Below are positions 2,517 to 13,110 of a DNA stretch of 32,000 bases, piece after piece. The notes beneath the pieces are model-generated. The model ran no database searches and was not told the DNA's origin. It saw only the letters and a program-made list of their open reading frames with translations. The stretch comes from Arthrobacter terrae. GTDB lineage: Bacteria; Actinomycetota; Actinomycetes; Actinomycetales; Micrococcaceae. The stretch spans positions 61,708-93,707 of the forward strand of contig NZ_JADNYM010000018.1 of NCBI RefSeq assembly GCF_015708085.1, in the 5' to 3' direction. The translations under genes and the position numbers were made by a program. Each line of letters starts with the position of its first letter. Position 1 is the stretch's first letter.

Positions 2517-4310
2517 ATGACCTCCACGATTCCGTTACCCGCATCGGGCAACGCCGCAGACGACTCACTGGTGGAGATGGCGTGGGATCCCATCACCCGG
2601 ATTGTCGGCAGCCTTGGCATCTATACCAAAATAGATTTCAAAAACAAAGAGGTGGTGCAGTGCAACAGCACTTCCTCGATTTTCCGCGGCTACTCGATCT
2701 TCATGCGCGGCAAGGACCCGCGCGACGCGCACTTCATCACCAGCCGGATCTGCGGGATCTGCGGCGACAATCACGCCACGTGTTCCTGTTATGCGCAAAA
2801 CATGGCCTACGGGGTGAAGCCACCGCATTTGGGCGAATGGATCGTCAATCTCGGTGAAGCCGCGGAGTACATGTTCGATCACAATATCTTCCAGGAGAAT
2901 CTGGTGGGCGTGGACTACTGCGAGAAAATGGTCTCCGAGACCAACCCGGCGGTACTGGCCAGGGCGGAAAACACCCGGGCCCCGCATGAAGGCGAACACG
3001 GCTACCGGACCATCGCGGACATCATGCGTTCGCTGAATCCTTTTACCGGCGAGTTCTACCGCGAAGCGCTGCAGGTCAGCCGGCTCACCCGGGAGATGTT
3101 CTGCCTGATGGAGGGTCGCCATGTGCACCCCTCCACGCTTTATCCCGGCGGGGTCGGCACCGTCGCCACGATCCAGCTGATGACGGATTACCTCACGCGG
3201 CTGATGCGTTATGTGGAGTTCATGAAGAAGGTCGTGCCCATGCACGATGATCTCTTCGATTTCTTCTACGACGCGCTACCGGGCTATGAGCAGGTCGGGC
3301 TGCGGCGGACGCTGCTGGGGTGTTGGGGCTCCTTCCAGGATCCGGAATTCTGCAACTTCGCCTATAAGGACATGACCGACTGGGGCCGGAAGATGTTCGT
3401 CACCCCGGGCGTCGTCGTCGACGGAAAACTAGTGACCACAGATCTGGTGCGGATCAACCTCGGCATCCGGATCATGCTGGGCTCCTCCTACTACGAGGAC
3501 TGGAACGATCAGGAAATGTTCGTCACGAACGACCCGCTCGGGAACCCGGTGGACCGCCGTCATCCGTGGAACCAGCACACCAATCCCCGCCCGCAAAAGC
3601 GTGATCTCGCGGACAAATACAGCTGGGTGATGTCGCCGCGCTGGTTTGACGGACAGGACAATCTGGCGCTGGATACCGGCGGCGGCCCGCTGGCGCGGCT
3701 CTGGTCGACGGCACTGGCCGGACTGGTCGATATCGACTACGTCAAATCCACCGGACACAGCGTGGAGATCAACCTGCCCAAGACGGCCCTCAAGGGACCA
3801 GTCTCACTCGAATGGAAGATTCCGCAGTGGAGCAATACGATCGAACGCAACCGGGCCCGCACCTATTTCCAGGCCTATGCGGCGGCAGCGGCCCTGCATT
3901 TCGCGGAGAAGGCGCTCGAGGAAATCCGGGCCGGACGGACCAAGACCTGGGAATCGTTTGAGGTCCCGGACGAGGCGGTCAGTTGTGGCTTTACCGAAGC
4001 GGTCCGCGGCGTTCTTTCACACCATATGGTGATCCGCGACGGCAAGATCGCCAACTACCATCCGTATCCGCCAACCCCGTGGAATGCCAGCCCACGTGAC
4101 GCCTCCGGAACTCCCGGACCCTACGAGGACGCCGTGCAGGGGCAGCCCATCTTCGAAGAAAACGACCGGGAGCATTTCAAGGGGATCGATATTATGCGCA
4201 CGGTCCGCAGTTTTGATCCCTGTTTGCCCTGCGGCGTGCACATGTATCTGGGCGAGGGTAAAACGTTGGATATGCTGCACTCCCCCACGCAGTCACTCAC
4301 CGGAGAATAA
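2517..4310 (+). CDS. hhyL: [NiFe]-hydrogenase large subunit, group 1h/5 high-affinity type
   Basis: 597 aa. DPITRIVGSLG N-terminal motif. L1 motif TSRICGICGDNH and L2 motif SFDPCLPCGVH match, as I recall them, the published group 5/1h signatures. A 22-aa C-terminal extension after the L2 His (nt 4242-4307) fits endopeptidase processing. Confidence 0.95.
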   Translation: MTSTIPLPASGNAADDSLVEMAWDPITRIVGSLGIYTKIDFKNKEVVQCNSTSSIFRGYSIFMRGKDPRDAHFITSRICGICGDNHATCSCYAQNMAYGVKPPHLGEWIVNLGEAAEYMFDHNIFQENLVGVDYCEKMVSETNPAVLARAENTRAPHEGEHGYRTIADIMRSLNPFTGEFYREALQVSRLTREMFCLMEGRHVHPSTLYPGGVGTVATIQLMTDYLTRLMRYVEFMKKVVPMHDDLFDFFYDALPGYEQVGLRRTLLGCWGSFQDPEFCNFAYKDMTDWGRKMFVTPGVVVDGKLVTTDLVRINLGIRIMLGSSYYEDWNDQEMFVTNDPLGNPVDRRHPWNQHTNPRPQKRDLADKYSWVMSPRWFDGQDNLALDTGGGPLARLWSTALAGLVDIDYVKSTGHSVEINLPKTALKGPVSLEWKIPQWSNTIERNRARTYFQAYAAAAALHFAEKALEEIRAGRTKTWESFEVPDEAVSCGFTEAVRGVLSHHMVIRDGKIANYHPYPPTPWNASPRDASGTPGPYEDAVQGQPIFEENDREHFKGIDIMRTVRSFDPCLPCGVHMYLGEGKTLDMLHSPTQSLTGE

Positions 4311-4316
4311 CCCGCC

Positions 4317-5369
4317 ATGAACGCGCAGAACGGTTTGCTGGAGGAAAGCGGGGCCGCTGCGCCTGTAGCTGCTGCGCCTGTAGCTGCTGCGCCGTGGGCA
4401 GCAGCGCAGCAGGCAGCAGCGGCCGGATCCGGCGCCGACCAGCTGCGGAATTCGGGGACACGGATCGGAACACTGCTGGATGCGCTGTCCTCCAACGGTG
4501 CGGTGGCCCGTGAGCGTGCCGAGGAGCTGGTCCGGCAGGTCACGGACCTCTACGGTGCCGGACTGGAGCGCATGCTCGGCGTTATTTCGGCCCGGGGAGG
4601 TGGCACCAATGGCACCTTGGAGGCCCTGGTCAAGGACGAGCTGATCTCCGGTTTGCTGCTGGTCCACGGCCTGCATCCACAGGACGTGCCGACCAGAGTC
4701 GCCGCCGCACTCGATAGTGTGCGGCCGTACCTTGGCTCCCATGGCGGCGACGTCGAGCTGCTGGGCATCAGCGCGAACGGGATCGTGAGTTTGCGTTTAT
4801 TGGGGAGCTGCCATGGCTGCCCGTCATCGTCCGTCACTCTCAAGCTCGCCGTCGAGGATGCCATTGAAACGGCGGCCCCCGAGGTGACATCCATCCAGGT
4901 GGTGGAGCAGGAGCCGATCCATTCCGCAGCAGTCATTCCCGTGAATGCGCTGCGGCTGCGCCTGGATCAGCAAACTGATCGGGATCAGCAGGCCAAACCC
5001 GCTGTTCCCGGCCCAGCGGGTGGGTCCTGGGAGCCAGCGGCGGAGCTTGGCGGACTTCAGCCAGGCGAGGTGGCAGGCTTCCTGGTCGGCGGGGCCCGGC
5101 TGCTGACCTGCCGGATCGGCGAGGATATTTTCGCTTACCTGGACTACTGTCCGCGGTGCGCGAAGTCTATGGCGGGGGCGTCATTGCAGCGCGCCCTCGC
5201 GGCCCCGACCGGTGGCGGTCTGCTGCGCTGCCCCACCTGCCGGGCCCATTTTGATGTACGGCTGGCCGGTGCGTGCCTGGAAGACAAGTCACTGCATCTG
5301 GATCCGCTTCCCTTGCTCGTGCGCGGCGGCGTGATTTCCGTTGCCATTCCCGTCGGGACTGTTTCATGA
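4317..5369 (+). CDS. NifU-like (Nfu C-terminal type) domain fused to a Rieske-like Cys4 module; putative hydrogenase-associated Fe-S protein (HhyE-like)
   Basis: 350 aa. Ala-rich repeat N-terminus. Nfu-type core HGGDVELLGI...LLGSCHGCPSSSVTLKLAVEDAI (aa ~118-195). C-terminal CPRC (aa 278-281) and CPTC (aa 305-308) lie in a context resembling the Rieske motifs CPH.../CP.H..FD (here RCPTCRAHFD). GGAGAA RBS. Stop overlaps the next start (ATGA). Confidence 0.8.
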   Translation: MNAQNGLLEESGAAAPVAAAPVAAAPWAAAQQAAAAGSGADQLRNSGTRIGTLLDALSSNGAVARERAEELVRQVTDLYGAGLERMLGVISARGGGTNGTLEALVKDELISGLLLVHGLHPQDVPTRVAAALDSVRPYLGSHGGDVELLGISANGIVSLRLLGSCHGCPSSSVTLKLAVEDAIETAAPEVTSIQVVEQEPIHSAAVIPVNALRLRLDQQTDRDQQAKPAVPGPAGGSWEPAAELGGLQPGEVAGFLVGGARLLTCRIGEDIFAYLDYCPRCAKSMAGASLQRALAAPTGGGLLRCPTCRAHFDVRLAGACLEDKSLHLDPLPLLVRGGVISVAIPVGTVS

Positions 5370-6064
5370 CCCCCCGAACAGGCAGCACCTCGGCCGCGGG
5401 GCCGGTAGCCATGCTCCGGCGCATCGCTGTCAGCCGTTCCGCCGCGGCCGACGGCGAGCGCTGCGAGATGTGCGCTGAGCCTCTTGCAGAAAAGCACCAG
5501 CACGTGGTGGATGTGGAAAGCCGCGCCCTGATGTGCACCTGCCGCCCGTGCTATTTGCTCTTTACCGATTCAACGGCACACCTGCGGTACCGTTCCGTGC
5601 CCGAGCGTTACCTCTCCTTTCCGGCATTCGAGCTGGGGACCGGGGTGTGGGATGAACTGGAGATACCAGTTGGGCTGGCATTCTTCTTCACCAATTCCCG
5701 GATGGCGCGGACCGTGGCGTTTTATCCCGGCCCCGCCGGTGCCACCGAGTCGGAGCTGCCGCTGGGTGCGTGGGAACCGGTGCTGGCACGCAACCCTGCC
5801 GTTGGCACTGCCGTGCCGGACACGGAGGCTTTGCTGATCCGTGCTCCTGGGCGGGAGCGTCTGCAGGCCGATTGCCATCTGGTACCGATTGATGCCTGTT
5901 ACGAACTGGTCGGTCAGCTGCGCAAAGTCTGGCGGGGCTTCGACGGCGGCCAGGACGCGCGTGCCCAACTAGCCGCTTTCTTTGAGCGGGTAGTCAATCG
6001 CAGCAGGCCCTACGTCGGCACCTCCTCTTCAGCGGCCCGGACCGGAAGCGGGCCCTGGCCATGA
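5366..6064 (+). CDS. conserved hydrogenase-cluster protein of unknown function, Cys-rich (I recall DUF5947-type proteins at this position in actinobacterial hhy loci; needs an HMM check)
   Basis: Track ORF 5273-6064 trimmed to the ATG at 5366, which overlaps the upstream stop (ATGA). 232 aa. CxxC-x20-CxCxxC cluster (CEMC...CTCRPC). Balanced amino-acid composition, unlike the antisense ORFs. Confidence 0.75.
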   Translation: MTPRTGSTSAAGPVAMLRRIAVSRSAAADGERCEMCAEPLAEKHQHVVDVESRALMCTCRPCYLLFTDSTAHLRYRSVPERYLSFPAFELGTGVWDELEIPVGLAFFFTNSRMARTVAFYPGPAGATESELPLGAWEPVLARNPAVGTAVPDTEALLIRAPGRERLQADCHLVPIDACYELVGQLRKVWRGFDGGQDARAQLAAFFERVVNRSRPYVGTSSSAARTGSGPWP

Positions 6065-6702
6065 CGGAACTTGGCTTCAGCATTGTGGACATTATTCCCG
6101 AACGCTACGCCGCCTCCCCACAGCTGACTGCCCGGCTGTGCCTCACAGAATCCACGGGTACGGCCATCCACGCGATAGCGTTGCGCTGCCAGGTGCGGAT
6201 TCAGCCGCAGCGCCGGGGCTACACTCCGGAGGAGGAAGCCGGTCTCCTGGATCTCTTCGGCACCCGCGTGCGCTGGCCCTCGACGCTGAAGCCCTTCCTC
6301 TGGATGCAGTGCAGCACCACGGTGCAGGGCTTCCGCGGTACGACCACGGTGGATCTCGCCCTTCCCTGTACGTTCGATTTCGAGGTCGCCGCGGCGAAAT
6401 ACCTGCATGCGCTCCGTGAGCGCAGCATTCCGGTGGAACTGCTGTTCTCCGGAACCGTCTTCACCAAAGGAGTCACCGGGTTCGGCGTCGAACCGGTGCC
6501 GTGGGACCGCGAGGCGTCGTTCCAACTGCCGGTTGCTACCTGGACCGAACTAATGGACCAGCATTTCCCCAACAGCGGCTGGCTCCGGCTTGACCGGGAT
6601 GTCATCAAAGCGCTGGCACACTATAAATCAAGTCTCGGACTGACCACCTGGGAAGCGGCTGTCGAAGGATTACTGGCGGCGGCCGGTGACCCGGTCCGAT
6701 GA
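6061..6702 (+). CDS. conserved hydrogenase-cluster protein of unknown function (I recall DUF6084-type proteins at this position; needs an HMM check)
   Basis: 213 aa. ATGA overlap with the upstream stop at 6061-6064 and with the downstream start at 6699-6702. No recognisable catalytic motif. Confidence 0.75.
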   Translation: MTELGFSIVDIIPERYAASPQLTARLCLTESTGTAIHAIALRCQVRIQPQRRGYTPEEEAGLLDLFGTRVRWPSTLKPFLWMQCSTTVQGFRGTTTVDLALPCTFDFEVAAAKYLHALRERSIPVELLFSGTVFTKGVTGFGVEPVPWDREASFQLPVATWTELMDQHFPNSGWLRLDRDVIKALAHYKSSLGLTTWEAAVEGLLAAAGDPVR

Positions 6703-8177
6703 TGAATCCGACCCTAAGCCTGGCCAGGGCCATCGCGGATGCGGTCCTTTACGAGGGCTACCTCCTCTATCCCTATCGTGCCTCGTCGCAGAAAAATCAG
6801 TCACGCTGGCAGTTCGGCATCCTGGGCCCGCCCGGTGCGGCCGCCGCGGGAGCAGGCGAAGAGTCAACCATGTTCGCGGACACCCTGCTGCGTTCCGGCC
6901 CGGATGCCCGGCTGGAGGTGCATCTGCGTTTCCTGCAGCTGCAGTCCCGGACCTGTGAAAAGTTCGACGACGGGACCTTCAGCCCGGTGCCTGCGCTGCA
7001 GATCGGCGCTGCACGATGGCTGACATGGGACGAGGCGACCGAACAGGAGATCACCCTGGGCCCGTTCACGCTCGATCAACTGGCCGGTGGATTAATAACG
7101 GCCGTCCGGGTTCCCGGCGCCGAAGAGACCGAGCTGCTCTACGATGCGGCAGGGGCGGCGGCAGGACGGCTCGTGCGCAGACGGCAGCCCCTTTTGGGCG
7201 AAGTCCGGCTGGGCGCCAGCGCTCTCCACGACTCTGCCGACGGCGGCGAATCCGTCTCCGGGCTGCTGCGCCTTCGGGTGAGTGCGGTAAATACCGCAGC
7301 GGGCCGAACGGTTCAGAAGCAGGAAGCAATCGCGCTGTCGTTCATCGGCACGCACCTGTTGCTGAGCGTGCAGGACGCGGACTTCATCTCGCTGCTGGAC
7401 CCGCCGGAGAACGCACGTGCCGCAGCGGCAGCCTGCAGCCAGCACCGCTGCTGGCCCGTCCTGGCCGGGCCAGAGGGGCAAAGCGACGTTCTGCTGATCT
7501 CCCCGATCATTCTTTATGACCATCCCGCTGTGGCGCCGGAAAGCTCGGTGGCGCTCTACGATTCAACCGAAATTGATGAGATCCTCACGCTGCGGGTGCT
7601 GACGCTCACCGAGGATGAAAAAGCCGAGGCAAGGGCCACGGATCCGCGGGCTGCGGCGATCATTGACCGCTGCGAGGCTATGAGCGATGACCAATTGCAG
7701 GCCCTGCATGGCATCCTCCGCAACCCCCATGCGGAGGTAGCACTTGAGCCTGATTTCGAACGGGGGGCAGGAATCCTGGGCGGACCCCGGGACGGCGCTG
7801 CCCTTACCCCTGCGTTCCCGGCCCTCGGCGATAGTCCCCTCACGGAGGCTCCCTGGTGGGATCCTGCGGCAGATTCCAGTGTCAGGCCGGAAACCGACGC
7901 TGTCGTGATCAAAGGGGTGCCCGTTGCCAGGGGCAGCCGCGTTGTGGTCATGCCGCGCCGCCGGGCGGATGCGCAGGACCTGTTTTCGGCCGGGCAGAGC
8001 GCGCGCGTCACTGGCGTTCATTTCGACGTCGACGGCAGCACTCACGTCGCGGTCGTCATTGAAGCGGATCCGGCCGCGGAACTGCAGGAGTGGTACGGAC
8101 GGTACCTCTACTTCTCTCCGGACGAGCTGGAGCCTCTCGACCCGGTACCCGCTACGGGAAATGGAAAGGAAACCTGA
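6699..8177 (+). CDS. large conserved hypothetical protein of the hydrogenase cluster
   Basis: 492 aa. Translationally coupled start (ATGA). N-terminal YEGYLLYPYR motif. Central ILYDHP...STEIDEILTLRVLTLTEDEK segment. No domain I can name from sequence alone. Confidence 0.72.
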   Translation: MMNPTLSLARAIADAVLYEGYLLYPYRASSQKNQSRWQFGILGPPGAAAAGAGEESTMFADTLLRSGPDARLEVHLRFLQLQSRTCEKFDDGTFSPVPALQIGAARWLTWDEATEQEITLGPFTLDQLAGGLITAVRVPGAEETELLYDAAGAAAGRLVRRRQPLLGEVRLGASALHDSADGGESVSGLLRLRVSAVNTAAGRTVQKQEAIALSFIGTHLLLSVQDADFISLLDPPENARAAAAACSQHRCWPVLAGPEGQSDVLLISPIILYDHPAVAPESSVALYDSTEIDEILTLRVLTLTEDEKAEARATDPRAAAIIDRCEAMSDDQLQALHGILRNPHAEVALEPDFERGAGILGGPRDGAALTPAFPALGDSPLTEAPWWDPAADSSVRPETDAVVIKGVPVARGSRVVVMPRRRADAQDLFSAGQSARVTGVHFDVDGSTHVAVVIEADPAAELQEWYGRYLYFSPDELEPLDPVPATGNGKET

Positions 8178-8179
8178 AC

Positions 8180-8299
8180 ATGAAAACCCTGGGAAAGCTG
8201 TCCGCCGTGATGCTGGCACTGACCGCCCTGACAGGAATCGCGGTGATGGTGCGCTCGATTCCGGACATTGTCCGCTACGTGAAAATCAGCCGGATGTGA
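8180..8299 (+). CDS. 39-aa predicted single-pass membrane peptide
   Basis: Internal ATG of track ORF 8090-8299, 2 nt after the upstream TGA, preceded by GGAAAGGAAA. Sequence MKTLGKLSAVMLALTALTGIAVMVRSIPDIVRYVKISRM has one hydrophobic helix and a basic tail. Its stop overlaps the GTG start of the protease gene. Confidence 0.55.
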   Translation: MKTLGKLSAVMLALTALTGIAVMVRSIPDIVRYVKISRM

Positions 8300-8901
8300 G
8301 CGGCATCGATCCTGCCCCCGCCTGCATACTCGTGGCCGGAGTCGGCAATATGTTCCTGCGCGATGACGGGTTCGGTCCGGAGGTCGCGCGTCTGATGGCA
8401 ACAGATGCGGCGATGCTCCTGCCCGGCGTCCGTGCGGTGGACTATGGCATCCGCGGAATGCATCTGGCCTATGATCTGCTTGACGGCGTGGATGCCCTGA
8501 TCCTGGTCGACACCGTGCCGGCACGGCGGGCAAGTGGCGGCAACGGATCCGGGAGTTCAAGTCCGGCGGCGGAAACGTACGGAGCCATCCGTGTTCTGCA
8601 GGTCCGCTCCGAGGATCTGCAGAACAATCACGGCGGCGGGCCAGCGGCCCTGGACCCGCACGGAATGGACCCGGTGGCTGTGCTGGACAGGCTGACGTCA
8701 CTGGGCGGCGGTGTTCCCCTGACATTTGTTGTGGGTTGCGTGCCCGGTGACTTGGCGGAAGGAATCGGACTTTCCGCTGCCGTGGCAGCCGCCATCCCGG
8801 AAGCGCTGAGCGCAATCGGGCAGCTAATCGAGGAAATTACTGAACGTCTTCCAGCGATAAGGAGAAATGGATCATGTGCCTGGGAATCCCTGGCCGGGTG
8901 A
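8296..8901 (+). CDS. hupD: hydrogenase maturation endopeptidase (HupD/HyaD/HybD family)
   Basis: Track ORF 7924-8901 trimmed to the GTG at 8296, which overlaps the upstream stop. Conserved ILVAGVGNMFLRDDGFG, ALILVDTV and DPHGMD metal-ligand contexts. A Gly/Ser-rich insertion is present. Confidence 0.88.
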   Translation: MSGIDPAPACILVAGVGNMFLRDDGFGPEVARLMATDAAMLLPGVRAVDYGIRGMHLAYDLLDGVDALILVDTVPARRASGGNGSGSSSPAAETYGAIRVLQVRSEDLQNNHGGGPAALDPHGMDPVAVLDRLTSLGGGVPLTFVVGCVPGDLAEGIGLSAAVAAAIPEALSAIGQLIEEITERLPAIRRNGSCAWESLAG

Positions 8902-9134
8902 TTGAGCTGCTCGCCGGCTACGGTGATCAGCTGGCTCTGGTGGACGTCGCCGGTGTACGGCGGAAAATCAACATCGGCCTGCTGGATGAGGGCCCGTTGA
9001 AGGCCGGAAGCTGGGTGATTATCCACATGGGCTTCGCGTTGGAGCGGGTGGACGCTGCCGGCGCCGAGCAGGCGATGGGGGGCCTGAAACTCATGGGTTC
9101 CGGTCCGGACGAGGACGCGTCAGCCCCAGGCTAA
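8874..9134 (+). CDS. hypC: hydrogenase assembly chaperone HypC/HupF family
   Basis: 86 aa. Diagnostic N-terminus MCLGIPGRV with essential Cys2. AGGAG RBS. 28-nt overlap with the protease gene. Confidence 0.92.
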   Translation: MCLGIPGRVIELLAGYGDQLALVDVAGVRRKINIGLLDEGPLKAGSWVIIHMGFALERVDAAGAEQAMGGLKLMGSGPDEDASAPG

Positions 9135-9904
9135 TGTTCCAGCGCTACGGCAGTGCCGCGGTGTTCGACGCCGGTGTTGGCGATCTTCAGATGCCGGACG
9201 GTAAAGTGCTGCAGCCGCTGCAGCTGCAGCGGGGTGAGCCTGTCGCAGACCCAATCCCAGTGCAGCGAGACCGCATCGCCGACGGCCAGATCGGTGACAA
9301 AGCCGGTGCCCGCAACGGCATGCTTGGCGGTCTCCACGATTGCCGGGCCCAGGCTGAGCACCGCACCGTCCCAGACCAGCGGCTGCGAGCGCACCAATGC
9401 CTCATCCCCGGTCACGGCCAACACCTCGCCCCAGCGGATCCGGCACTGGTCCAGCACGTTCAGCGCTGTCGGGTATCTGCGGTCATCGCGGAGCAGCCCC
9501 AGCCATGGATAGATCTCGAAGACGTGGAAACTGTGGTGCGGCACCCCGCCGGCAAGCACCCCCTCGACCAGATGCGGGAACTGCATTCCCGTCCGGGCCC
9601 GGAAGCGGTCCTCCATCGAGTTGCCGATGTTCCGCACGCCGACAGTGTCCAGCAGCGTGTTACCGACCCAGTAGGCCTCCACCACCCGGTAATCCAGTGG
9701 ATCGGCTATTTTGGTGGCCCCGGCGATCAGTTCAAGATACGGCCACGCGCCGGCGAATCCTTTTGCCAGCTCCTTCAATCCCCGGTCCGTCACTCCGGAC
9801 TGACCATAGTGCAGAAGGGCATCGCTGTCTTCGGGCCCGCAACTACCCCGCGAATTGGGCGGATACGCGTAACGGACAAACAGCTGGGCACCGTTAATAA
9901 CCAT
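9131..9904 (-). CDS. conserved hypothetical protein convergent to hypC (I recall DUF6390-type proteins near hyp genes; needs an HMM check)
   Basis: Track ORF 9131-10378 trimmed to the ATG at 9904 (MVINGAQLFVRYAYPP...) with a GGAGCGAGG RBS. 257 aa of protein-like composition. The overlapping plus-strand ORF 9134-9931 is R/Q/H/P-rich antisense noise. Its stop (9131-9133) overlaps the hypC stop (9132-9134). Confidence 0.7.
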   Translation of the reverse strand: MVINGAQLFVRYAYPPNSRGSCGPEDSDALLHYGQSGVTDRGLKELAKGFAGAWPYLELIAGATKIADPLDYRVVEAYWVGNTLLDTVGVRNIGNSMEDRFRARTGMQFPHLVEGVLAGGVPHHSFHVFEIYPWLGLLRDDRRYPTALNVLDQCRIRWGEVLAVTGDEALVRSQPLVWDGAVLSLGPAIVETAKHAVAGTGFVTDLAVGDAVSLHWDWVCDRLTPLQLQRLQHFTVRHLKIANTGVEHRGTAVALEH

Positions 9905-10009
9905 GATTTGGCCTCGCTCCACAACAGGTGATTTTGACGCTAGCACCACCACCCGCAGCCCACAAGGATCAGTACCGGAGCCGGAGCCGGAGAAGATCTC
10001 GCAGTGCCG

Positions 10010-10093: not shown

Positions 10094-11251
10094 GTGAGCA
10101 ACCCCGACATGAGCCGCCGTTCGGTTCTGTCCATGATGATGCTCGGCGGCGGCGCGGTTCTTCTGTCCTCGTGCGGGGATAACAGCGCTGCGGCCCCGGA
10201 AGGCACCACTGCGCGAAGCAGCACTCCGGCGTTGGCCCAACGCATCAGTGTCACCGACCAGCGGGGCAGGACATTGACGTTCGACAGGCCTGTTACCAGC
10301 GTGGTGACCATTCCGATGCCCGCCGCGTCTTTGCTGGTCGCCGTTGATCAGAGCGCTGACCATCTGAGCGGGATGCATAATGCCTCGTGGCTGGCCATGC
10401 GGGACGGCACCATGGGCAAATTATTTCCGAATGCCTTGAAGGTCCCGCACGAGATTGCCACGGCGGACTTTACCCCGAATGTGGAAAGCATCCGGGCGCT
10501 GAACCCGGATGTCGTGGTGCAGTGGAGCGATTCCCAACTCACCGAACCACTGGAGAACGCCGGGCTGAAGGTTCTTGGCTTGACCAACACCGGACAACAG
10601 TCGGACGTTGACACCTGGGTCACCCTGTTCTCGGAAATGCTGGGCAAGCCGGAGCGGGCCAGTGCGATGAAATCCCGCAGCGACCATGAGCTCACCAGGA
10701 TCCGGGCTCTGGCGTCCGGCCGGTCGCGCCCAGGACCGGGGATTCTGTATTTCAACCGCTTCACGGGAGGTCTCAAGGTAGCCGCGAACGGGAGCTACAA
10801 CGATTTCTATATCAAACTGGTGGGCGGCAGCAATCCCGCCACCGCGGATACCGGAGTCAAGGGCTCCGGCATGGTGGGCGTGGACGTGGAGCAGGTCCTG
10901 GCATGGAATCCCGAGGTCATCCTGCTGGGCAACTTCGATGGCGCCCTGCCTCAGGATCTCTATTCAGACCCGGTCTGGCAGAACGTTGCGGCGGTGCGTC
11001 ATCGGAGGGTCTATAAGGTTCCCCTCGGCGGATACCGCTGGGACCCACCGGGCCAGGAATCGCCGCTCATGTGGCAGTGGCTCACGGACATCAGCTTTCC
11101 AGGCCAGGTCCCTTCCCCGCTGCGCGGTGCCATCCCGGACTATTACCGCTTCCTGTATGGCCGGGCTCCCGATTCGGCGGAAATAGACACCATGTTGTGG
11201 ATGAGCGTGAACAGCCAGTCAGCTGACTACGAACAGTTCCGTGGCGCGTGA
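10094..11251 (+). CDS. ABC transporter substrate-binding lipoprotein, Fe-siderophore/heme/B12 class
   Basis: 385 aa. GTG start with AAGGAGG RBS. Tat-like SRRSVL motif followed by lipobox LLSSC. Overall periplasmic-binding-protein (FecB/BtuF-like) layout, and genetic linkage to a FecCD permease. Confidence 0.85.
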   Translation: MSNPDMSRRSVLSMMMLGGGAVLLSSCGDNSAAAPEGTTARSSTPALAQRISVTDQRGRTLTFDRPVTSVVTIPMPAASLLVAVDQSADHLSGMHNASWLAMRDGTMGKLFPNALKVPHEIATADFTPNVESIRALNPDVVVQWSDSQLTEPLENAGLKVLGLTNTGQQSDVDTWVTLFSEMLGKPERASAMKSRSDHELTRIRALASGRSRPGPGILYFNRFTGGLKVAANGSYNDFYIKLVGGSNPATADTGVKGSGMVGVDVEQVLAWNPEVILLGNFDGALPQDLYSDPVWQNVAAVRHRRVYKVPLGGYRWDPPGQESPLMWQWLTDISFPGQVPSPLRGAIPDYYRFLYGRAPDSAEIDTMLWMSVNSQSADYEQFRGA

Positions 11252-12317
11252 GGTCCGGGAGCTGAGGCCTAAGAGACTCGGTGCACCGGCAGTACGGTCT
11301 GTTCCGCGGATAATCGGCCCGATGGCAGGCACGGCACTTTTGCTGCTCGCCTTGGCAGTGCTCGCGCTGACGGTAGGCCGCTACCACGTACCGTTCTGGC
11401 ATGTAGTACAGATCCTTGCCTCCCGGGTACTTCCGCTGGATACGCCCATGAACAGTTCCGAAGAAACCGTAGTGCTCTTGGTCCGGCTCCCCCGGGTTCT
11501 GCTGGCGCTGCTGGTGGGCGGCGGCCTTGCCATTGGCGGCGCCGCGCTGCAGGCCATCTTTCGTAATCCGCTGGTCAGCCCGGAAATCATCGGCGTATCG
11601 GCCGGGGCGTCCTTTGGCGGTGCACTGGCCCTGCTGTTTGGCCTGGGCTCCCTGGTGCTGGTGAGCGGATCCTTTGCCTTCGGGTTAGCGGCGCTTGGCC
11701 TGCTCTTCCTGATTACCTCCGGTCGCGGCGGCACACCGATGCTCATGATCGTGCTCGGCGGCGTCGTCGTGGGATCGTTCTTCTCCGCGCTGGTGGCACT
11801 GATCACCTACATCGCCGATCCGTTCACCACCTTGCCTGCGATCGTCTTCTGGCTGCTGGGAAGTGTAGCGACGGCGAATTATGCAAAGGTCCTGATCGCC
11901 GTTATCCCGATTCTGGCCGGGACCGGTGTGCTGTTGGCCCTGCGCTGGCGGATCAATGTGCTGTCCCTCGGTGATGAGGATGCCGCCGCACTGGGTCTGC
12001 GGCCCCGCACCTTACGTGTGGTGGTCCTGATCGCCGTCGCACTCATCGTGGCCGGCGCGGTGGCCGTCAGCGGAGTGATCAGCTGGGTGGGACTGGTCAT
12101 CCCGCACCTGGCCCGCATGTGGGTGGGGCCCGACCACCGGGTGCTGCTGCCGGTGTGCTTTGCGCTGGGCGGGTGCTACCTCATCGCAGTAGACACTGTG
12201 GCGCGCACCGCCACAGCCGGGGAGATCCCGTTAGGTGTGCTGACCGCACTGATCGGTGCGCCGGTTTTCTTTTTGTTGCTGCGCCATAACCGGGACAGGA
12301 TTTGGGACAGTGCTTGA
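11241..12317 (+). CDS. FecCD-family ABC transporter permease
   Basis: 358 aa and multi-TM. Motif LQAIFRNPLVSPEIIGVSAGAS is typical of the FecCD/BtuC family. The start is uncertain: the 11241 alternative start overlaps the SBP gene by 11 nt, and ATG at 11322 is also possible. Confidence 0.88.
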   Translation: MAREVRELRPKRLGAPAVRSVPRIIGPMAGTALLLLALAVLALTVGRYHVPFWHVVQILASRVLPLDTPMNSSEETVVLLVRLPRVLLALLVGGGLAIGGAALQAIFRNPLVSPEIIGVSAGASFGGALALLFGLGSLVLVSGSFAFGLAALGLLFLITSGRGGTPMLMIVLGGVVVGSFFSALVALITYIADPFTTLPAIVFWLLGSVATANYAKVLIAVIPILAGTGVLLALRWRINVLSLGDEDAAALGLRPRTLRVVVLIAVALIVAGAVAVSGVISWVGLVIPHLARMWVGPDHRVLLPVCFALGGCYLIAVDTVARTATAGEIPLGVLTALIGAPVFFLLLRHNRDRIWDSA

Positions 12318-13110
12318 GCTGGACCACGTTGCCTATGGATACCGGGCGGCCGAACACATTTTCCGCGATGTCAGTTTCCGGGTGTCGGCGGGTACCGCGA
12401 CGGCGGTCCTGGGGCCCAACGGCAGCGGCAAGACCACGCTGGTCCGCTGTGCGGCCGGGCTTCTGGCGCCTACCGAGGGCACCATCACCAGGCTGGAAAC
12501 GGTGGGCTATGTACCGCAGGCCCACAGCAGCTCCTTCGCCTACCGTGCGCTGGATATGGTGCTCATGGGCAGGGCGCGCCAGGTCCGCATTTTTCGTTCC
12601 CCGGGTGCGGCCGATCGGTTCGCAGCGCTGCGGGCCATGGAGCGGGTCGGTATCGCGGACCTGGCAGACCGGCTCTTTCCCACACTCAGCGGAGGCGAAC
12701 AGCAGCTGGTCTTCATTGCCCGCGCCATCGCCACGGGCTGCCCGCTGCTTGTCCTGGATGAACCATCCACCGGATTGGACCTCAAGAACCAGGTGCGTGT
12801 GCTGACCCTGCTGCGGGATTTGAAAGCGGACGGGATGGCCCTTTTGCTCAGTACCCACGAGCCGGATCATGCGCTGTACCTGGCCGATTCTGTGGTCCTG
12901 ATGCACCGGGACGGCGTAGTGGCCGGGAGTGCCGCGGAATTATTGACCGCCGCCCAGCTGAGCGGCCTTTACGGCGTCGGCGTCAGCACCCTGGAGTACC
13001 AGGAGGGCAACGGGGCCCGGCGCCGGACCGTCGTCCCGCGGTACGGGTCCGCGAAAACCCTGCTGTCCGGTGATAGCCAGTTGCCGCCGTCGGCCCCGAT
13101 CAACAGTTGA
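12310..13110 (+). CDS. ABC transporter ATP-binding protein (FecE/BtuD-like)
   Basis: Track ORF trimmed to the GTG at 12310, which overlaps the permease stop by 8 nt. Walker A GPNGSGKTT, signature LSGGEQQ, Walker B LLVLDEP. Confidence 0.9.
   Translation: MLELDHVAYGYRAAEHIFRDVSFRVSAGTATAVLGPNGSGKTTLVRCAAGLLAPTEGTITRLETVGYVPQAHSSSFAYRALDMVLMGRARQVRIFRSPGAADRFAALRAMERVGIADLADRLFPTLSGGEQQLVFIARAIATGCPLLVLDEPSTGLDLKNQVRVLTLLRDLKADGMALLLSTHEPDHALYLADSVVLMHRDGVVAGSAAELLTAAQLSGLYGVGVSTLEYQEGNGARRRTVVPRYGSAKTLLSGDSQLPPSAPINS

Follow-up and report, generated by a model that had tools for sequence, protein, structure and literature searches.

The closest described relatives of the genes considered here come from Cupriavidus necator H16 and Mycobacterium smegmatis. 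The genes in question are five open reading frames (ORF1-ORF5, positions 4317-8299, plus strand) that lie between the large-subunit gene hhyL and the maturation protease gene of a group 1h [NiFe]-hydrogenase (Hhy) locus of Arthrobacter terrae, within the 32,000-nucleotide stretch that was analysed (the window; contig NZ_JADNYM010000018.1). In C. necator, PHG066-069 of the cluster of the hydrogenase AH were described as four ORFs of unknown function. These genes (PHG066-PHG069, hofKG cluster of plasmid pHG1) belong to the same four families as ORF1-ORF4, stand in the same order with overlapping starts and stops, and fill the interval from the large subunit to the protease. However, PHG066, with 192 amino acids (aa), lacks the Nfu CxxC motif and the C-terminal cysteine domain of ORF1, and pHG1 has no DUF6893 peptide (ORF5), the ORF4 counterpart overlapping the protease gene directly. 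By gene order the block is also the counterpart of M. smegmatis MSMEG_2718-2714, with about 50% amino-acid identity. There, HhyE (MSMEG_2718) carries a NifU-like CxxC and two C-terminal CxxC motifs, as does ORF1 (PMC6883350), the hypothetical genes MSMEG_2714-2716 lie between hhyE and an M52 peptidase gene, and the Mycobacterium and Mycolicibacterium loci have the gene order of the window.

It is already known that deletion of hhyE in M. smegmatis abolishes respiratory H2 uptake together with the zymogram activity with nitroblue tetrazolium (NBT), and that the artificial acceptor cannot make up for this loss (PMC6883350). The authors left room for assembly or scaffold roles (PMC6883350), and they named MSMEG_2717/PHG067, two genes which they relate to each other, as another electron-acceptor candidate (PMC6883350). 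MSMEG_2713-2720, including hhySL, are co-induced in M. smegmatis, and from the range PHG064-070 of C. necator the genes hofK, hofG, PHG066, PHG067 and PHG070 were reported as co-induced. The Hhy of M. smegmatis is membrane-associated, though without a predicted transmembrane region, while the AH of C. necator was described as cytoplasmic.

Parallels also exist in other hydrogenase groups. HucE of the group 2a enzyme Huc is a paralogue of HhyE with a NifU-like domain and is essential for activity in vivo, but its Rieske motif, CxH...CxxC, is a true one, and its identity to HhyE is about 27% (PMC6883350). Purified Huc consists of HucS, HucL and HucM only and reduces menaquinone analogues, HucE not being mentioned in that paper, and in a 2023 review the same groups refer to the HucE/HhyE paper for "additional assembly and maturation proteins". 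HucM, the scaffold of Huc, is a small extra subunit that explains membrane association without a cytochrome b and is a conceptual parallel for DUF6893 and ORF4, although it is unrelated in sequence and size and is a stoichiometric subunit with a solved structure. In group 1d, HoxO/Q/R/T/V and HupG-K are likewise operon-encoded, enzyme-specific helpers between the structural and hyp genes; of these, the rubredoxin-type HoxR has a CxxC...CxxC metal site that shields cofactors in aerobic assembly (cited in PMC6883350). The group 1d accessory proteins differ in that no sequence or profile similarity to the block products was detected (Pfam, NCBIfam). In addition, the small subunit of the window begins with MPTEASIKAEETLIHVLW, in which neither an RRxF motif nor a twin-arginine (Tat) signal was found, and since the 1h enzyme is made without a Tat signal, the Tat-proofreading role of the 1d helpers does not apply.

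We hold, with moderate confidence, that the block encodes a Hhy-specific assembly and maturation set and not permanent electron-transfer subunits. A preliminary description of this DNA had presented the block as an undescribed module, which it is not: the listing of PHG066-069, the hhyE deletion and the electron-acceptor proposal for MSMEG_2717/PHG067 all preceded it, so the gene set and its conservation were already known, and the finding correctly picks out a known unknown. Within the literature searched, what appears to be new is the invariance of the putative DUF5947 ligands, the widespread loss of the Nfu and C-terminal cysteines outside the Actinobacteria, the mobility of the ORF2-ORF4 trio together with the protease, and the apparent limitation to Actinobacteria of the 39-aa peptide with its tail motif.

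Gene order, coupling and conservation

The stop of hhyL (2517-4310) lies at 4310 and the ATG of ORF1 at 4317, a gap of 6 nucleotides. ORF1 (4317-5369, 350 aa), ORF2 (5366-6064, 232 aa), ORF3 (6061-6702, 213 aa) and ORF4 (6699-8177, 492 aa) are joined by ATGA overlaps at 5366-5369, 6061-6064 and 6699-6702. The ATG of ORF5 (8180-8299, 39 aa) follows the ORF4 stop at 8177 after 2 nucleotides, and its TGA (8297-8299) shares a GTGA with the GTG start of the protease gene at 8296. Read from the sequence, the five chained plus-strand ORFs and their junctions are as the preliminary description gave them. Composition is of the coding type in ORF1-ORF5 (GC content at third codon positions 0.73-0.78, with second positions lowest), and a promoter and terminator scan of the five-ORF run returned no signal above the shuffled background. 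The further claim, that this coupling implies stoichiometric co-expression with the hydrogenase, over-reads it, as the block proteins have no relatives in the PDB, the Nfu domain of ORF1 aside, and Huc was purified without HucE.

A genome scan with ORF4 gave 80 loci, from Arthrobacter/Pseudarthrobacter, Nocardia, Mycobacterium/Mycolicibacterium, Rhodococcus, Streptomyces, Acidimicrobiales and one metagenome-assembled genome (MAG) labelled Acidobacteriaceae. As far as each contig reaches, all 80 have the order hypB-hhyS-hhyL-HhyE-DUF5947-DUF6084-ORF4-protease-hypC on one strand, with the protease after the block in 78. The plasmids C. necator pHG1 and that of Methylocystis parvus carry the same four genes between large subunit and protease. 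In these 82 loci from genomes and plasmids, ORF3 and ORF4 overlap by 4 nucleotides (-4) in 78/81, the ORF1/ORF2 junction is -4 in 46/78, and the ORF2/ORF3 junction is -4 or -8 in 57/80; the chained arrangement is far beyond chance. The locus closest to that of the window, 93-99% identical, is from Arthrobacter sp. H14-L1, and HhyS is 80-99% identical to the small subunits of all related genome loci.

To avoid a bias toward loci that bear the block, metagenomes were scanned from the hydrogenase side, with a HhyL alignment headed by the C. necator protein. All four genes follow directly 3' of hhyL in 31 of the 33 metagenome loci with at least 4.6 kilobases downstream. The preliminary description had let its proposal stand or fall with conservation beside hhyL in other group 1h genomes, and this conservation is clear: the block forms a genuine, translationally coupled set that is conserved in, and specific to, hydrogenases of group 1h. 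It is strongly, but not absolutely, conserved with these enzymes across bacterial phyla.

Rearranged loci add to this. In one metagenome locus (L110, ORFs read), DUF5947-DUF6084-ORF4-protease lies upstream of hhyS and the NifU-like gene downstream, after hypB and hypA. L116, L127 and L165 are arranged in this way too; the NifU-like gene lies by hypB in L116 and L165, and the contig of L127 ends before that point. Since DUF5947-DUF6084-ORF4 travels as a unit with the protease in such loci, the trio seems tied to the maturation step. Another metagenome locus, L122 (9373-12324), has no ORF4-type gene; DUF6084 is followed there by an unrelated gene, with no protease in the vicinity.

Some of the sampled loci call for separate comment. 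The MAG labelled Acidobacteriaceae (L035, CAJCHX010000440.1) has HhyS and HhyL 84-86% and ORF4 55% identical to the Arthrobacter genes, and a truncated HhyE without the C-terminal CxxC domain; it could be a case of mis-binning or of horizontal transfer. In pHG1 (L081, 3208-4263) and in the Methylocystis parvus plasmid (L082, 3287-4366), the small-subunit gene is annotated "hydrogenase expression protein HypE", which must be an annotation error, because the products are 67-68% identical to HhyS of the window.

Domains and candidate metal sites of ORF1 to ORF4

ORF1 consists of an Ala-rich N-terminus, a helical domain with an invariant LLxHGLHP, an Nfu/NifU domain (PF01106 at 8e-22; Nfu domains in the PDB match at 6.5e-15) and a Rieske-like C-terminal domain. 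The Nfu CxxC is C165-x2-C168, kept in 97-99% of 74 aligned sequences, and the C-terminal domain holds two CxxC pairs, C278/C281 and C305/C308. As ORF1 adjoins hhyL and has both the NifU-like domain with CxxC and the C-terminal two-CxxC domain, its sequence identifies it as the HhyE orthologue, with the published HhyE architecture. We considered and rejected ORF1 as a Rieske [2Fe-2S] protein: the Rieske_2 score of 20.1 bits is under the cut-off of 27, the positions of the Rieske ligands are all Cys, and the CxH...CxxH ligand motif is missing. Assignment as a NfuA or NifU equivalog was likewise rejected (TIGR03341, 38 bits against 269; TIGR02000, 33 against 273), the Nfu domain alone being shared.

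Outside the Actinobacteria the picture is different. Among 67 complete metagenome NifU-like proteins, 50 are without the Nfu CxxC and without the entire C-terminal Cys domain, as are PHG066 and the Methylocystis protein, and these Cys-less proteins retain the helical domain with its HGLHP motif and the Nfu fold. Since the Cys motifs are missing in most non-actinobacterial orthologues, the shared function of the first gene cannot depend on those clusters; the Fe-S (iron-sulfur) motifs of HhyE are lineage-specific and cannot account for a function common to the whole set.

The start region of ORF1 also contains an exact 15-nucleotide tandem repeat, GCTGCGCCTGTAGCT (4356-4393, 2.5 copies, encoding AAPVA repeats), followed by a GCA/GCAGCAGC run at 4398-4421. 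Both fall in the Ala-rich, poorly conserved N-terminus, and the region is probably slippage-prone and variable in length.

ORF2 matches PF19372 (DUF5947) with 241 bits against a threshold of 25 (7.6e-72), over profile positions 1-176 of 177, and is orthologous to PHG067, with 42% identity in DUF5947. The preliminary description had found a recognisable domain in the first ORF only; in fact ORF2, ORF3 and ORF5 belong to the Pfam families DUF5947, DUF6084 and DUF6893, each well above threshold. The DUF5947 pattern is C33-x2-C36-x7-H44-x-H46-x10-C57-x-C59-x2-C62, plus C178, and 142 sequences, drawn from Actinobacteria, Proteobacteria and metagenomes, share all of these Cys and His residues, save that one lacks C178. 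The CxxC-x7-HxH-x10-CxCxxC part is a rubredoxin- or zinc-ribbon-like knuckle pair with extra ligands, which makes the constellation a putative metal or Fe-S site and, by conservation, the one universally conserved candidate metal site of the block. It is also conceivable, though doubtful, that DUF5947 holds a Cys6His2 Fe-S or Ni centre of a new type that serves as the physiological electron exit.

These ligand sets bring in the alternative that the block is an electron relay, in which HhyE and/or DUF5947 would draw electrons from the distal [4Fe-4S] cluster in HhyS and hand them on to menaquinone, with ORF3 and ORF4 as scaffolds and DUF6893 as membrane contact, the block together replacing the missing cytochrome b subunit. 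We regard this as possible, though improbable. The invariant DUF5947 set and the HhyE motifs, strictly kept in Actinobacteria, would suit a relay, but most non-actinobacterial NifU-like orthologues are without cluster ligands, and ORF3 and ORF4 have no cofactor motif. The role was proposed in the literature for HhyE and PHG067 (PMC6883350), HhyE and HhySL co-localise on native gels, and the block genes are associated with those for the structural subunits; however, the hhyE deletion mutant is not rescued by NBT, Huc needs no HucE to reduce menaquinone analogues, and no block protein is in the PDB, with or without hydrogenase. The hydrogenase cluster itself encodes no cytochrome b or other membrane subunit (ORF translations, Pfam/NCBIfam), as a relay replacing one would require, but it also encodes no quinone-site-like membrane protein, DUF6893 having just 39 aa and being missing outside the Actinobacteria.

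The same motifs could also serve protection or repair of O2 damage, with the block proteins loosely bound to mature Hhy, re-reducing or rebuilding its clusters during long operation in air. Hhy does work in air during starvation, the genes are co-induced with the enzyme, and the Nfu domain and rubredoxin-like CxxC pairs resemble aerobic metal-centre protection factors such as HoxR (PMC6883350). As the same data fit biogenesis equally, and the Cys-less NifU-like orthologues speak against a redox role for the first gene, we consider this very unlikely.

ORF3 matches PF19562 (DUF6084) with 305 bits against a threshold of 25 (2.9e-91; profile positions 1-209 of 213) and is orthologous to PHG068 of pHG1, with 44% identity in DUF6084. 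Its AlphaFold2 model (mean predicted local distance difference test score, pLDDT, 76) suggests an Ig-like beta-sandwich with helical inserts, and Foldseek returned beta-sandwich matches only (Af_0446, LEA-2/TMEM106B, the Kir cytoplasmic domain), at template modelling (TM) scores of 0.3-0.5.

ORF4 matched no Pfam or NCBIfam family, and its relatives, at least 7998 at 90% clustering, are every one named hypothetical. By tblastn, 96% of its length aligns at 35% identity with the hypothetical protein that pHG1 encodes between DUF6084 and the protease, and this slot is the same in pHG1, Methylocystis and all 80 genome loci; we refer to the counterpart as PHG069, a number assigned by gene order and the published cluster description. 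The family has a universal N-terminal motif, YEGYxLYPYRxxxxKNxxR, and H219, C246 and H337 are near-universal in the alignment. The AlphaFold2 model (pLDDT 67) gives a confident beta-rich core at about 40-270, a conserved helical segment at about 282-340 and an SH3-like C-terminal domain, the last matching PetP in the PDB (TM 0.64-0.78), which gives no functional information. The most conserved parts, namely the N-terminal motif and residues ~250-345, have low pLDDT, as expected of regions that would fold on a partner. No cofactor motif was seen in the conservation alignments of ORF3 or ORF4, single-sequence and profile searches of the PDB with ORF2, ORF3 and ORF4 returned nothing significant, and profile-profile comparison of the DUF5947, DUF6084 and ORF4 families against each other showed no homology.

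Two candidate relationships of ORF4 were rejected. A match to DrmA of DISARM (Foldseek E-value 4e-5) has a TM score of 0.23 and a root-mean-square deviation of 21 A, and is a local beta-sheet match. Membership in Phage_TAC_7 (PF10109) was suggested by weak matches in 37/42 actinobacterial relatives (best E-value 0.0007, 15-20 bits against a cut-off of 25); all of these are one conserved helical segment of about 50 residues (~282-350; ~282-331 in the window), and no match was found in ORF4 of the window itself or in proteobacterial members. Finally, residues 117-129 of ORF2 (5714-5752, VAFYPGPAGATES) resemble residues 270-282 of ORF4 (7506-7544, IILYDHPAVAPES), both highly conserved segments; the resemblance is not significant (hhalign E-value 0.55), and it could be a shared short motif.

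The DUF6893 peptide and membrane association

ORF5 matches PF21833 (DUF6893) with 34.6 bits against a threshold of 24.6 (1.9e-8). It has one predicted N-terminal transmembrane helix (maximum Kyte-Doolittle value 1.94) and a conserved basic tail, RS(I/V)PD(I/L)xRY(L/M)(K/R)xRxM, with the final Met invariant; hydrophobicity indicated no transmembrane segments in ORF1-ORF4. The peptide is present in 74/78 actinobacterial loci, nearly always with exactly 39 aa; among the best 120 family members, 119 have 39 aa and one has 41. Three independently sampled family members occupy the same slot of 1h loci. No such peptide was found in pHG1, Methylocystis, three deep actinomycete MAGs or any of the 80 metagenome loci of the HhyL-side scan.

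In several loci other short ORFs separate DUF6893 from the protease gene. One or two extra acidic, low-complexity ORFs of about 70-105 aa starting M(G/A)EHREEPQSARGAPGSRD occur in Nocardia, a Streptomyces and several MAGs (loci L036, L040, L043, L044, L048, L050-L052, L055, L058-L060, L063, L065, L067-L072 and L078), and L084 has an ORF of 68 aa.

The distribution of DUF6893 matches the reported localisation of Hhy; this concerns two organisms only and is no more than a lead. It is tentatively conceivable, though doubtful, that DUF6893 supplies actinobacterial Hhy with its missing membrane anchor, the basic cytoplasmic tail RSIPDIxRYLKxRxM docking ORF4 or HhySL and so bringing an otherwise soluble enzyme to the menaquinone pool. 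A broader form of this idea gives the block a scaffold or tether role, in which ORF4, possibly with DUF6084, would bind mature HhySL and DUF6893 would anchor the complex to the cytoplasmic face of the membrane, as a functional analogue of HucM that is unrelated in sequence. The membrane association of M. smegmatis Hhy, for which no transmembrane region is predicted, would fit such a tether, as would a conserved single-pass peptide with a basic tail that is seen only in this slot of actinobacterial 1h loci and is absent from C. necator with its cytoplasmic AH; the low-pLDDT conserved segments of ORF4 would be its partner-folded regions. However, ORF1-ORF4 show the same conservation in loci without DUF6893, and the block's core function therefore cannot be tethering; tethering by itself also leaves the zymogram loss of the hhyE mutant unexplained, and the association of DUF6893 with Hhy is known from the genes alone. 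As a reading of the whole block it is unlikely, and such a role is plausible mainly for ORF5, perhaps with ORF4.

Proposed role of the block and its surroundings

Several lines of evidence argue for an assembly and maturation set. The block sits among maturation genes, from the structural genes to protease, hypC and hyp genes, in every locus examined, and the trio is linked to the endopeptidase. The hhyE mutant loses in-gel activity, which points to an unassembled enzyme and not to a missing downstream relay, and HucE, essential in vivo, is not part of purified active Huc. ORF3 and ORF4 are predicted to fold in the manner of typical binding modules and have no cofactor motifs, ORF1-ORF4 are without transmembrane segments, and the whole cluster is co-induced in M. 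smegmatis and C. necator. For HhyL, the C. necator HofG structure 5AA5 is the sole PDB match at an E-value of 1e-50 or below (1076 bits). It is the sole solved 1h structure with a HhyL relative, we take it to contain the two catalytic subunits only, and it stands beside block proteins that have no such PDB relatives.

From what is shown, namely the order and coupling of the genes, their conservation, motifs and fold classes, and the published need for HhyE, we infer the following biochemical steps. The block would be transcribed together with hhySL and the gene of the HhyL-specific endopeptidase, to which it is translationally coupled, and its products would hold and load the apo-subunits of a cytoplasmic, O2-insensitive hydrogenase in air, and then leave. 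HhyE would dock through its conserved helical and Nfu fold, and in Actinobacteria its Nfu-type CxxC cluster site and four-Cys domain may deliver or protect the Fe-S clusters of HhyS. DUF5947 would use its metal or Fe-S centre as a rubredoxin- or HoxR-like redox guard or as a cofactor carrier, DUF6084 and ORF4 would be client-binding chaperones or scaffolds that cooperate with the protease step, and DUF6893 may bring the process or the product to the membrane. In the preliminary description relay, tether and maturation were offered side by side; we lean to maturation, favour the relay less, and find a tether plausible only for the 39-aa ORF5. Its statement that the products have no assigned role holds for four of the five, which are still without a biochemical role, but not for HhyE, shown by deletion to be essential for Hhy activity.

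A number of points weigh against the assembly set. Islam et al. found that HhyE co-localises with HhyS/HhyL on native gels and favoured a role in electron transfer (PMC6883350). The invariant six-Cys, two-His site of DUF5947 appears equally compatible with an Fe-S relay centre, and 76 of 80 aligned actinobacterial ORF1 copies keep the Nfu CxxC and both C-terminal CxxC pairs. Metagenome locus L157 (3130-6051) has no ORF4-type gene, the protease following DUF6084 directly, and about 9.5% of organisms with Huc or Hhy, including Methylacidiphilum and Thermomicrobium, are without HucE or HhyE (PMC5364354, PMC6883350); given the HhyE-less 1h organisms and L157, the set is not an absolute requirement for 1h maturation. 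Moreover, the models of ORF4 and ORF3 are of moderate confidence (pLDDT 67 and 76), and the roles given to ORF2-ORF5 are inferred and do not come from direct biochemistry.

The genes around the block belong to the same hydrogenase locus and all lie on the plus strand. The nickel GTPase gene hypB (416-1378; PF02492 at 1.2e-25) encodes a long, His/Asp-rich N-terminal region with 24 His residues, presumably for nickel storage or binding. It precedes hhyS (1432-2490), the group 1h small-subunit gene, recognised by the NCBIfam hydrogenase small-subunit models. In the product of hhyL, the L1 motif is TSRICGICGDNH and the L2 motif SFDPCLPCGVH, both matching those quoted for group 1h/5 (PMC5364354), and 22 residues follow the L2 His, a tail that would be cut off by the protease. 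Downstream of the block are the maturation endopeptidase gene of HupD/HycI type (8296-8901; TIGR00072 at 3.7e-25) and the hypC/hupF chaperone gene (8874-9134; PF01455 at 5e-21, TIGR00074), whose start overlaps the protease end.

Right after hypC, on the minus strand and convergent, lies a gene for a DUF6390 protein (PF19927, 3.6e-89) at 9131-9907. The listed ORF extends to 10378, but the PF19927 match begins at residue 161 of its 415 aa, which makes the Met at about 9907 the probable true start. Of the 80 related loci, 73 have a homologue, in other genera co-directional within the hyp cluster, and it looks like another uncharacterised 1h-linked gene. An ABC uptake system with overlapping genes (10094-13110, plus strand), consisting of a lipoprotein-type substrate-binding protein, a FecCD-type permease and an ATPase, adjoins the hydrogenase cluster; its candidate substrates are of the iron-siderophore, nickel or cobalamin type.

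Much of the atmospheric H2 that is taken up by soils is consumed by group 1h hydrogenases, and the block is the obvious candidate for how they are assembled in air, make contact with the membrane and pass on their electrons; the field already treats it so. For this family, the present analysis means that DUF5947, DUF6084 and ORF4 are evolutionarily linked to the endopeptidase, and that the 39-aa peptide found only in Actinobacteria offers a simple handle on the membrane association of Hhy. If DUF6893 were indeed the anchor, this would account for the membrane association of mycobacterial Hhy and for the cytoplasmic location of the C. necator enzyme, which is encoded by a locus without the peptide.

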